A stretch of 64,000 nt of DNA from a virus (IMGVR_UViG_3300037424_001387:539-64538), one strand, 5' to 3'; numbered from the stretch's first letter, positions 49,492 to 50,205 are shown. Translations and numbers: made by a program. Notes: generated by a model not told the origin, from the letters alone.

Positions 49492-50205
49492 TCACTTAAC
49501 CCCAAACTGGCTGACAGCATCCCGGTTAGCATCAAACTTGTCCGCCGCTTGGGAGAACTTCTCCCGCACTACGGCCTCAAAACTCTCCCGGCTGGCGTGG
49601 GGTGCCCGTTCAACCAGCCAACCATAAGCCGCTTCCCAGGAATCTTGCGGGAACGTCTCACCGGTATCCCAGTCCTGATCCCAAGACACCTGGACAGTTC
49701 CGGCCGGGCTGATACACCGAAAGGTCGAGTTTGACCATTTCCCGTTTTTGGTGAAATCAGACCCCAGGACCTTAACCACGCCTGGGATGTCCCGACCTTC
49801 AAACCGGGAAACCTCACCGGTTGGGGCGACAACAAAACAACGCGGTTGACGACCGCGCCGTCCTTGCCCATCGTTCCAAGTCCACTTTACCCCGCCGGCT
49901 GCCGGCTTGGGGGTAGCAACAACCGAAACCTTAAACGTGGTAGGTTCCCCGGCAAACTGCCGGACCTGCTCAAGGGTGAGTTCCTTCCCGCGCAATTCGG
50001 CGGGGATTTTTAGGGGAATTTCAGTCAGGCAAGCGGCCAGGGCGGCCAGGTGGTTGGGTAACACACCGATGACGTGCTTACCCCGCACACCATCAGGCGT
50101 AGCGTTGCCGGTGATGACCGGCTCTTGATCTGTTACCAGACCAATTTCTTTGAGGTATTGAATCAGCGCCGGATGGCGCGTAACAACTACGGTATCCATA
50201 ATCAA
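49492..50205 (-). CDS. Csx16-like N-terminal domain fused to an unknown phage domain
   Basis: VVTRHPALIQYL..HVIGVLPNHLAA..LKIPAELRGKELTLEQV resembles Csx16 (VSRHPGA..VIGTLPVHLAA..WRGRELS). Confidence 0.65.
   Translation of the reverse strand: MIMDTVVVTRHPALIQYLKEIGLVTDQEPVITGNATPDGVRGKHVIGVLPNHLAALAACLTEIPLKIPAELRGKELTLEQVRQFAGEPTTFKVSVVATPKPAAGGVKWTWNDGQGRRGRQPRCFVVAPTGEVSRFEGRDIPGVVKVLGSDFTKNGKWSNSTFRCISPAGTVQVSWDQDWDTGETFPQDSWEAAYGWLVERAPHASRESFEAVVREKFSQAADKFDANRDAVSQFGVK

Follow-up and report, generated by a model that had tools for sequence, protein, structure and literature searches.

A divergent Csx16-family domain fused to a portable phage domain: a probable viral ring nuclease directed against type III CRISPR

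The minus-strand gene described here (49495..50199, with the stop codon at 49492-49494) is located in a phage genome and encodes a 235 amino acid (aa) protein in which an N-terminal Csx16 domain is followed by a C-terminal domain of a distinct family, denoted domain X below; coordinates are those of the window, i.e., the entire 64,000-nucleotide stretch of DNA that was analyzed. The product is probably a Csx16-family viral ring nuclease with an anti-type III CRISPR role, a reading in which we place moderate confidence. The idea that phage Csx16 is an anti-CRISPR is already in print, and the present gene is a further example of a phage Csx16. Purified Csx16 has been reported to degrade cA4 completely, whereas cA6 and cA3 were not degraded even with ten times as much enzyme; the same study, which covered 28,114 phage genomes, found Csx16 in 2 and AcrIII-1 in 36 of them (Hoikkala et al., Phil Trans R Soc B 2025, PMC12409355; preprint 10.1101/2024.09.24.614671). 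Because Csx16 is a cA4-specific ring nuclease that has been seen in two phage genomes, the anti-type III reading is supported by extension from published work and is not new in kind. The same data bear out the statement, in an earlier note on this DNA, that Csx16 is a type III-associated family that degrades cyclic oligoadenylate, and specify the activity as that of a cA4-specific ring nuclease in vitro (PMC12409355).

The source record is an IMG/VR virus sequence of 64,538 bases (IMGVR_UViG_3300037424_001387), rated as linear and 68% complete, nearly all of which is covered by the window. The presence of genes for a tape measure protein, a PBSX-type large terminase and a DnaB-like helicase identifies it as a tailed phage; DNA methyltransferases are encoded as well. 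The terminase shows only ~42% identity to those of Streptomyces and Thermobifida phages. Neither type of Cas10 and no tRNA genes were found in the record, and no CRISPR array was found near the Csx16-X gene. The ORF to which the earlier note drew attention (49492-50205, minus strand) is indeed present in the ORF list. The TTG start listed for it is probably not used: judging from the nucleotide sequence, translation would begin at the ATG at 50199, which is preceded at a distance of 8 nt by a GGAG Shine-Dalgarno sequence, so that the likely product is the 235-aa form, to which all residue numbers below refer. This product is identical to a database protein (P0001). Full-length homologs with 55-70% identity exist (P0002-P0008), which shows that Csx16 and X are fused in a conserved gene rather than by read-through.

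The N-terminal domain (residues 1-97; 49909..50199, minus strand) is assigned to Csx16 by Pfam and PADLOC; in the AlphaFold2 (AF2) model it is predicted to adopt an alpha/beta CARF-like fold, and it contains the predicted dimer interface. Residues 5-91 match Pfam PF09652 (Cas_VVA1548, i.e., Csx16) with E=2.3e-16 and 60.2 bits compared with a gathering cut-off of 25, and the profile search proposed in the earlier note thus gave a clear positive result. The match spans profile positions 2-90 of 91, that is, the full domain, and the score in a genome-wide search was 62.6 bits. Four Csx16 models of PADLOC also match this domain, including CARF2--CARF_HEPN_CSX16, which was built on CARF-HEPN-Csx16 fusions. 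The NCBIfam TIGR02620 cut-off is not reached by the Csx16-X protein (20.2 bits vs 46.35, E=5e-4), and PF08960 (DUF1874) does not match it at E<=0.1. The N-terminal motifs that were quoted previously are all there, namely VVVTRHPAL (containing T7, R8 and H9), GKHVIGVLPNHLAALAA (residues 40-56) and LRGKELT (69-75). The protein has the core Csx16 motifs, (S/T)-R-H after strand 1, G-x-L-P-x-x-L-A-A after strand 3 and P-x-x-x-R-G-x-E-L, with T7, R8, H9, G45, L47, P48, P66, R70, G71, E73 and L74 kept at the core positions. Because of an LPLHLAA-like string, the Csx16 profile also matches DARPins and ankyrin repeats (E=1e-8, ~35 residues); an ankyrin-repeat identity is excluded by the full-domain Pfam match and the alpha/beta model.

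The AF2 model of the whole protein has a mean pLDDT of 91.3, with ~95 over the Csx16 domain, and shows the two domains as separate units, with a linker of lower confidence around residue 100. The structural match that the earlier note had asked about was found in one search and not in the other: among 48,161 PDB chains, the Csx16 domain is most similar to the DUF1874/AcrIII-1 family protein AFV3-109 (2j6c_A; Z 4.8, rmsd 2.5, 72 residues), whereas a Foldseek search of the PDB with the two-domain model yielded no match at E<=0.001. A Z of 3.9 is obtained with the Crn2 domain in the structure of cA4-bound Csx1-Crn2 (8y7g_B). Both of these fold scores are low in absolute terms; the published comparison of a Csx16 model with 2J6B gave Z 4.8, equal to the value obtained here (PMC12409355). 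The statement that AcrIII-1 belongs to a different family is accurate at the sequence level, where alignment of the Csx16 profile with a DUF1874-X protein by hhalign gives a probability of 0.2%, and does not extend to structure, where the two are neighbors, with 2j6c_A as the best PDB match. Being structural neighbors that are unrelated in sequence, Csx16 and DUF1874 are two Pfam families of one fold class. One PADLOC profile labeled Csx16 matches a DUF1874 protein.

The Csx16-X protein is also predicted to form a homodimer, with an ipSAE of 0.76, the best of three controls scoring 0.00; the runs agreed in at least 61% of their contacts, and the pLDDT of the partner was 81 or higher. The run used its own alignment and two AMP ligands, with the ligand position outside the scoring; of 30 proteins solved as pairs, 20 attain the pass mark, as does 1 of 23 solved as single chains, rates that apply here only roughly given the custom alignment and AMP. 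The confident contacts all fall within the Csx16 domain (residues 1-3, 20-23, 42, 49-62 and 86-99), and the predicted interface is centered on antiparallel pairing of the last strand, with domain X outside it. The predicted dimer fits the dimeric architecture expected of a ring nuclease.

The Csx16 domain of this phage is not entirely typical when compared with the CRISPR-linked versions. The comparison sample included 400 gammaproteobacterial genomes, 27 of which encode Csx16, and 20 of these cellular proteins were aligned with the query. In 21 of the 27 genomes, Csx16 scores 117-136 bits against PF09652, compared with 60-63 bits for the query. In four cases, the cellular Csx16 gene belongs to a long stretch of genes on one strand whose size would fit a cas operon, as judged from gene layout alone. 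Residues H32, D34, D41, R57, Y58 and H60, which are at least 90% conserved in the gammaproteobacterial proteins, are replaced in the query by N, T, K, C, L and E, respectively; thus, the RYxH motif (R57-Y58-x-H60) of CRISPR-linked Csx16 is absent, as is a four-residue insertion of the cellular proteins. In 27 close relatives of the query, T7, R8, H9, G20, V43, G45, L47, P48, A52, E60, L63, P66, R70, G71, E73 and L74 are invariant. The consensus of this clade reads VVVTRHPAL, GKHVIGVLP and VTEIPL, and the clade keeps its own invariant H42 and E60; H32 is nearly invariant inside the clade and is replaced by Asn in the query and its nearest relatives. Common to the query, the 20 cellular Csx16 and the 27 clade members are R8, H9, G45, L47, P48, L51, A53, P66, R70, G71, E73 and L74. 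By these sequence features, the query is a member of a separate, divergent phage-type Csx16 clade. Other IMG/VR viral contigs carry this clade both as a stand-alone protein of ~100 aa (L001) and as a Csx16-X fusion (L012), and a tblastn search of 50,697 GenBank phage records gave a single weak Csx16 match. Separately, in a cellular protein of 511 aa from one gammaproteobacterial genome (L049:247-1782, plus strand), the C-terminal part (residues 418-510) is a canonical Csx16 domain. From the domain position, one might guess that this protein is of the CARF-HEPN-Csx16 type as modeled by PADLOC, in which case it would be the Csx16 counterpart of Csx1-Crn2.

Because these changes affect conserved residues of a family that still lacks assigned catalytic residues, the protein could prove to be a slow or inactive enzyme or to differ in specificity, and the changes are the main reason why our confidence in the ring nuclease reading is kept moderate. 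The Csx16-like domain might then bind a cyclic oligonucleotide while being catalytically weak or dead, acting as a sponge, or might have shifted to cA3, cA6 or a CBASS product; this would still be counter-defence. The loss of H32, D41 and RYxH and the sub-threshold TIGR02620 score are compatible with such a change, and Csx15, a good cA4 binder with very slow nuclease activity, provides a precedent (10.64898/2026.01.21.700848). In the same paper, however, sponging is judged ill suited to the large amounts of cOA that type III systems produce (10.64898/2026.01.21.700848). Moreover, the clade's own invariant T7, R8, H9, H42, E60, R70 and E73 suggest a conserved active site rather than decay, and DUF1874, the alternative fusion partner of domain X, is a fast enzyme. 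On balance, a sponge or a shifted signal appears unlikely, and an active Csx16-family ring nuclease remains the preferred reading.

Domain X (residues 99-235; 49495..49905, minus strand) was delineated from the AF2 model and family searches and is predicted to combine a six-stranded beta sandwich with a three-helix bundle. The earlier note described the C-terminal part as an unknown domain, and this holds in that no known family or fold emerged from the Pfam, PHROG, PDB and BFVD searches; NCBIfam and PADLOC gave no match either. The motif string noticed there, WNDG..R.PRC..G..IPGVVKVLG..KNGKWSNS, is present and turns out to be the conserved core of a large family: an exhaustive phmmer search of 1.84 billion representatives yielded at least 383 domain X clusters at E<=0.001, 103 of them at E<=1e-10. 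The AF2 model of domain X, built from a 147-sequence alignment, is highly confident (pLDDT 96.3, pTM 0.87), with the six strands preceding the three helices. The best Z in a structure alignment (VIA-align wide) is only 4.1; Foldseek found nothing at E<=0.001 in the PDB (best E 0.14, a filamin Ig domain) or in BFVD (best E 0.035), and the domain X profile does not match any PDB sequences. These leads reflect generic beta-sandwich or small three-helix resemblance, and the HMG-box-like matches among them were not taken as an indication of DNA binding. YezG-like leads from the ESM Atlas (0.83-0.85) were weak and fell short of the useful range.

In most members of the family, domain X is located at the N-terminus; it makes up the whole protein (~130 aa) or precedes a coiled-coil tail or a second domain, Y. 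Domain X was identified on 15 IMG/VR viral contigs, the longest of 167 kb, and, among species-representative genomes, on 25 contigs, most of them from Patescibacteria-type MAGs (such as WWE3, Saccharibacteria and Uhrbacteria) and a few from gammaproteobacterial MAGs; it is absent from the 50,697 GenBank phage records searched with tblastn. The X genes are found in variable accessory regions, beside AAA+ ATPases, a DndB-like gene and ribonucleotide reductase and outside the structural modules, and no conserved neighbor was found across 38 loci. In two viral loci only, a 500-545-aa protein with a C-terminal AAA+ ATPase is encoded directly downstream of the X-fusion gene (L005:9494-10993 and L018:9169-10803, both on the plus strand), and in a third (L008), a same-sized ORF without a Pfam match occupies this position. 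The commonest architecture in the family is X followed by Y (~80 aa; SFGSPTNR...GYW..PK...H.SGMHGGYY), which is found on Patescibacteria and gammaproteobacterial MAG contigs (L022-L043) and on viral contigs (L013, L015, L016 and L018). The X-Y proteins often have an extra variable tail that ends in a short amphipathic motif, e.g., LGDALRKAGL or LDDLLAKFG. A candidate division WWE3 MAG encodes, on an 864-kb contig, a 329-aa protein that consists of a small N-terminal domain and two tandem X copies, 52% identical to the query X (L020:7410-8399, plus strand); the same architecture is seen in P0121.

An informative feature of domain X is its repeated association with ring nuclease families. The only recurring Pfam partners among 147 X-family representatives are Csx16 (7) and STIV_B116-like/DUF1874 (4); BLAST clustering of the non-X parts gives 8 and 6, respectively, with X located on either side of the enzyme domain. 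PF08960 (DUF1874/AcrIII-1) takes the place of Csx16 beside X domains that are 45-65% identical to that of the query (P0009-P0013). In P0009, where X is ~65% identical to the query X, the N-terminus is recognized as PF08960 with E=5.7e-10. A provirus record (L005) encodes X followed by a DUF1874-like domain that was recognized by eye. The fusions are scattered across several supported branches of the X tree, a quick maximum-likelihood tree with few columns and many unresolved forks, and the starred branches imply at least three changes involving N-terminal Csx16, two involving C-terminal Csx16 and two involving C-terminal DUF1874. The well-supported X clade of 30 members that includes the query contains Csx16-X, X-Csx16, DUF1874-X, X-DUF1874, X-Y and X-only proteins. 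This repeated joining of X to cA4-degrading enzymes provides independent support for the ring nuclease reading of the N-terminal domain and is the best available clue that X functions in the same arena.

Other partner domains of X are present at the N-terminus of P0014 and P0015 (115 aa) and at the C-terminus of P0126 (120 aa). The domain of P0014 and P0015 has a T-x-H after the first strand and a G-rich loop, reminiscent of CARF-like folds. A third ring nuclease family was considered for these partners and was not supported, as there was no match in Pfam, NCBIfam, PADLOC or the Atlas and no similarity to Csx16 in hhalign.

It is conceivable, as a tentative proposal, that domain X is an unrecognized but widespread phage counter-defence module with a new fold that has repeatedly captured two families of ring nucleases. 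X would then be a candidate for binding a type III effector complex, a CARF effector or a second signaling nucleotide. Natural two-domain anti-CRISPRs, such as AcrIE4-F7, are a possible precedent for a single phage protein with two independent counter-defence modules. If X is such a module, Csx16-X and DUF1874-X would count as bifunctional anti-CRISPRs, and in phages of Patescibacteria and other uncultured hosts the X-only and X-Y proteins, which number in the hundreds, would make up an untapped anti-defence family. The opposite emphasis is that X holds the main function, which would lie outside defence, for instance in controlling early transcription or in binding a host protein, with the ring nuclease as an occasional passenger. 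In line with this, ~90% of the X-family representatives lack a ring nuclease domain, X being alone or joined to a coiled coil or Y; the predominance of Patescibacteria-type MAG contigs points the same way, as does a search limited to Cmr2-type Cas10, in which four of five X-bearing genomes showed no match. We nevertheless regard this possibility as distinctly unlikely, considering that the only recognizable partners of X are two ring nuclease families, gained repeatedly, and that the X genes belong to variable accessory regions rather than to structural or replication modules; furthermore, it would leave the ring nuclease reading of the N-terminal domain intact.

The Csx16-X gene is the second gene of a tightly packed minus-strand run, with a predicted strong promoter 300 nt upstream. 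This sigma-70-like site (TTGACA-17 nt-TATGAT with an extended TG; 50503..50531, minus strand) matches 11 of 12 positions in a consensus scan and is a pattern match only. The same scan identified a perfect TTGACA-17-TATAAT promoter-like site in the divergent orientation (50575-50603, plus strand), and the back-to-back sites at 50503-50603 look like a divergent early control region. The first gene of the run (50216..50467, minus strand; ORF list) encodes up to 83 aa without a Pfam or PADLOC match and ends 11 nt before the Csx16-X start. The next downstream gene (49041..49484, minus strand; ORF list), which starts 8 nt after the Csx16-X stop at an ATG at 49484 with a GAGG Shine-Dalgarno sequence, encodes a 147-aa protein in which a SWIM-like CxC...CxH motif was recognized by eye and which has no match in Pfam, NCBIfam or PADLOC. 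More generally, the region between Csx16-X and csf1 (48170-49484, minus strand) is filled with tightly packed small ORFs that encode, besides the SWIM-like protein, three short Cys-rich, Zn-ribbon-like proteins; where tested, these small ORFs have no Pfam, NCBIfam or PADLOC match.

Farther downstream, 1.3 kb from the Csx16-X gene and on the same strand, lies an array-less type IV-B cassette (44782-48141, minus strand). It consists of genes for a Csf1-like Zn-finger protein (47335-48141), a 128-aa ORF without a family match at the cas11 position (47130-47516), Csf2 (46159-47133; TIGR03115, E=4e-17), Csf3 (45486-46172; TIGR03116, E=1e-16) and a CysH/PAPS-reductase-like protein (44782-45489), all on the minus strand, and no strong minus-strand terminator was found before ~44250. 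A role of Csx16-X as an accessory of the phage's own Csf system, with no inhibition of host type III CRISPR, is suggested by the shared strand and apparent operon with csf1-cas11-csf2-csf3-cysH and by the published resemblance of the Csf complex to type III effector complexes (PMC7937560), but is highly improbable because type IV-B lacks the Cas10 cyclase and hence has no cOA to regulate, and no Cas10 is encoded in the record; besides, none of five other viral records that carry this Csx16 clade or X, all of them incomplete, shows a match for Csf2, and the Csx16-X homologs and X fusions occur in variable neighborhoods. The combination of a CRISPR-derived off-switch enzyme with an array-less type IV-B cassette in one phage operon may represent a counter-defence island.

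Comparison with the known systems helps to place the protein. Like Csx16 (PF09652/TIGR02620), it has a full-domain Pfam match, the core motifs, a small alpha/beta fold with DUF1874 as the nearest relative and a predicted homodimer, and phage copies of Csx16 have been reported; unlike the canonical family, it is a member of a divergent clade, scores too low for the TIGR02620 cut-off, does not keep H32, D41 or R57-Y58-x-H60, and carries an extra 137-aa domain, whereas canonical Csx16 proteins are ~95-105 aa long. It is also encoded by a phage without a type III locus, which is expected of a viral copy and has no bearing on the mechanism. AcrIII-1, a viral homodimeric enzyme that destroys cA4 and is expressed early (10.1101/778746), would share with it the mode of action and early viral expression, has a related fold and, as a true PF08960 domain (P0009-P0013; L005), is fused elsewhere to X of the query type. 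Unlike AcrIII-1/Crn2 (DUF1874, PF08960), the query Csx16 domain has no sequence or profile similarity to that family, and the catalytic His47/Glu88 pair cannot be mapped on it; the AcrIII-1 proteins on which there are descriptions to date consist of one domain or are joined to Csx1, not to X. The self-limiting effectors Csx1-Crn2 and CARF-HEPN-Csx16 similarly combine a ring nuclease domain and a second domain in one chain; in these proteins, the partner is a cA4-activated effector and the fusion limits host defence inside a CRISPR locus, whereas the partner in the query is a phage domain without CARF or HEPN features.

Under the preferred reading of Csx16-X as an anti-type III ring nuclease, the route that we infer, from cA4 binding and cleavage to the anti-CRISPR effect, along with any role of X, would be as follows. 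The gene would be transcribed early, as the second one behind the strong promoter, and the protein would dimerize via its N-terminal Csx16 domain. The dimer would bind cA4 made by the host Cas10 and cut it to linear di-adenylates, and with cA4 removed, the cA4-dependent CARF effectors would stay off. Domain X would be an independent, portable phage module that takes no part in dimerization; the best guess is that it contributes a second function, in counter-defence or targeting, that is of use beside a ring nuclease.

Viral ring nucleases are the main known viral answer to the signaling arm of type III CRISPR. So far, AcrIII-1 is the only ring nuclease tested as a viral anti-type III protein, and phage Csx16 is a database observation. 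If the enzyme were inactive, the present finding would shrink to a divergent domain of unknown use. Apart from the additional example and the operon noted above, two observations are added here. The first is a distinct phage-type clade of Csx16 with different conserved residues, which could help to pin down the catalytic residues of the family. The second is a portable domain with a confidently predicted fold that has no match in the PDB or BFVD and whose only recognizable partners are two ring nuclease families, acquired repeatedly. Thanks to this pattern of fusions, there is now a testable function for a family that comprises at least 383 protein clusters and is otherwise anonymous.
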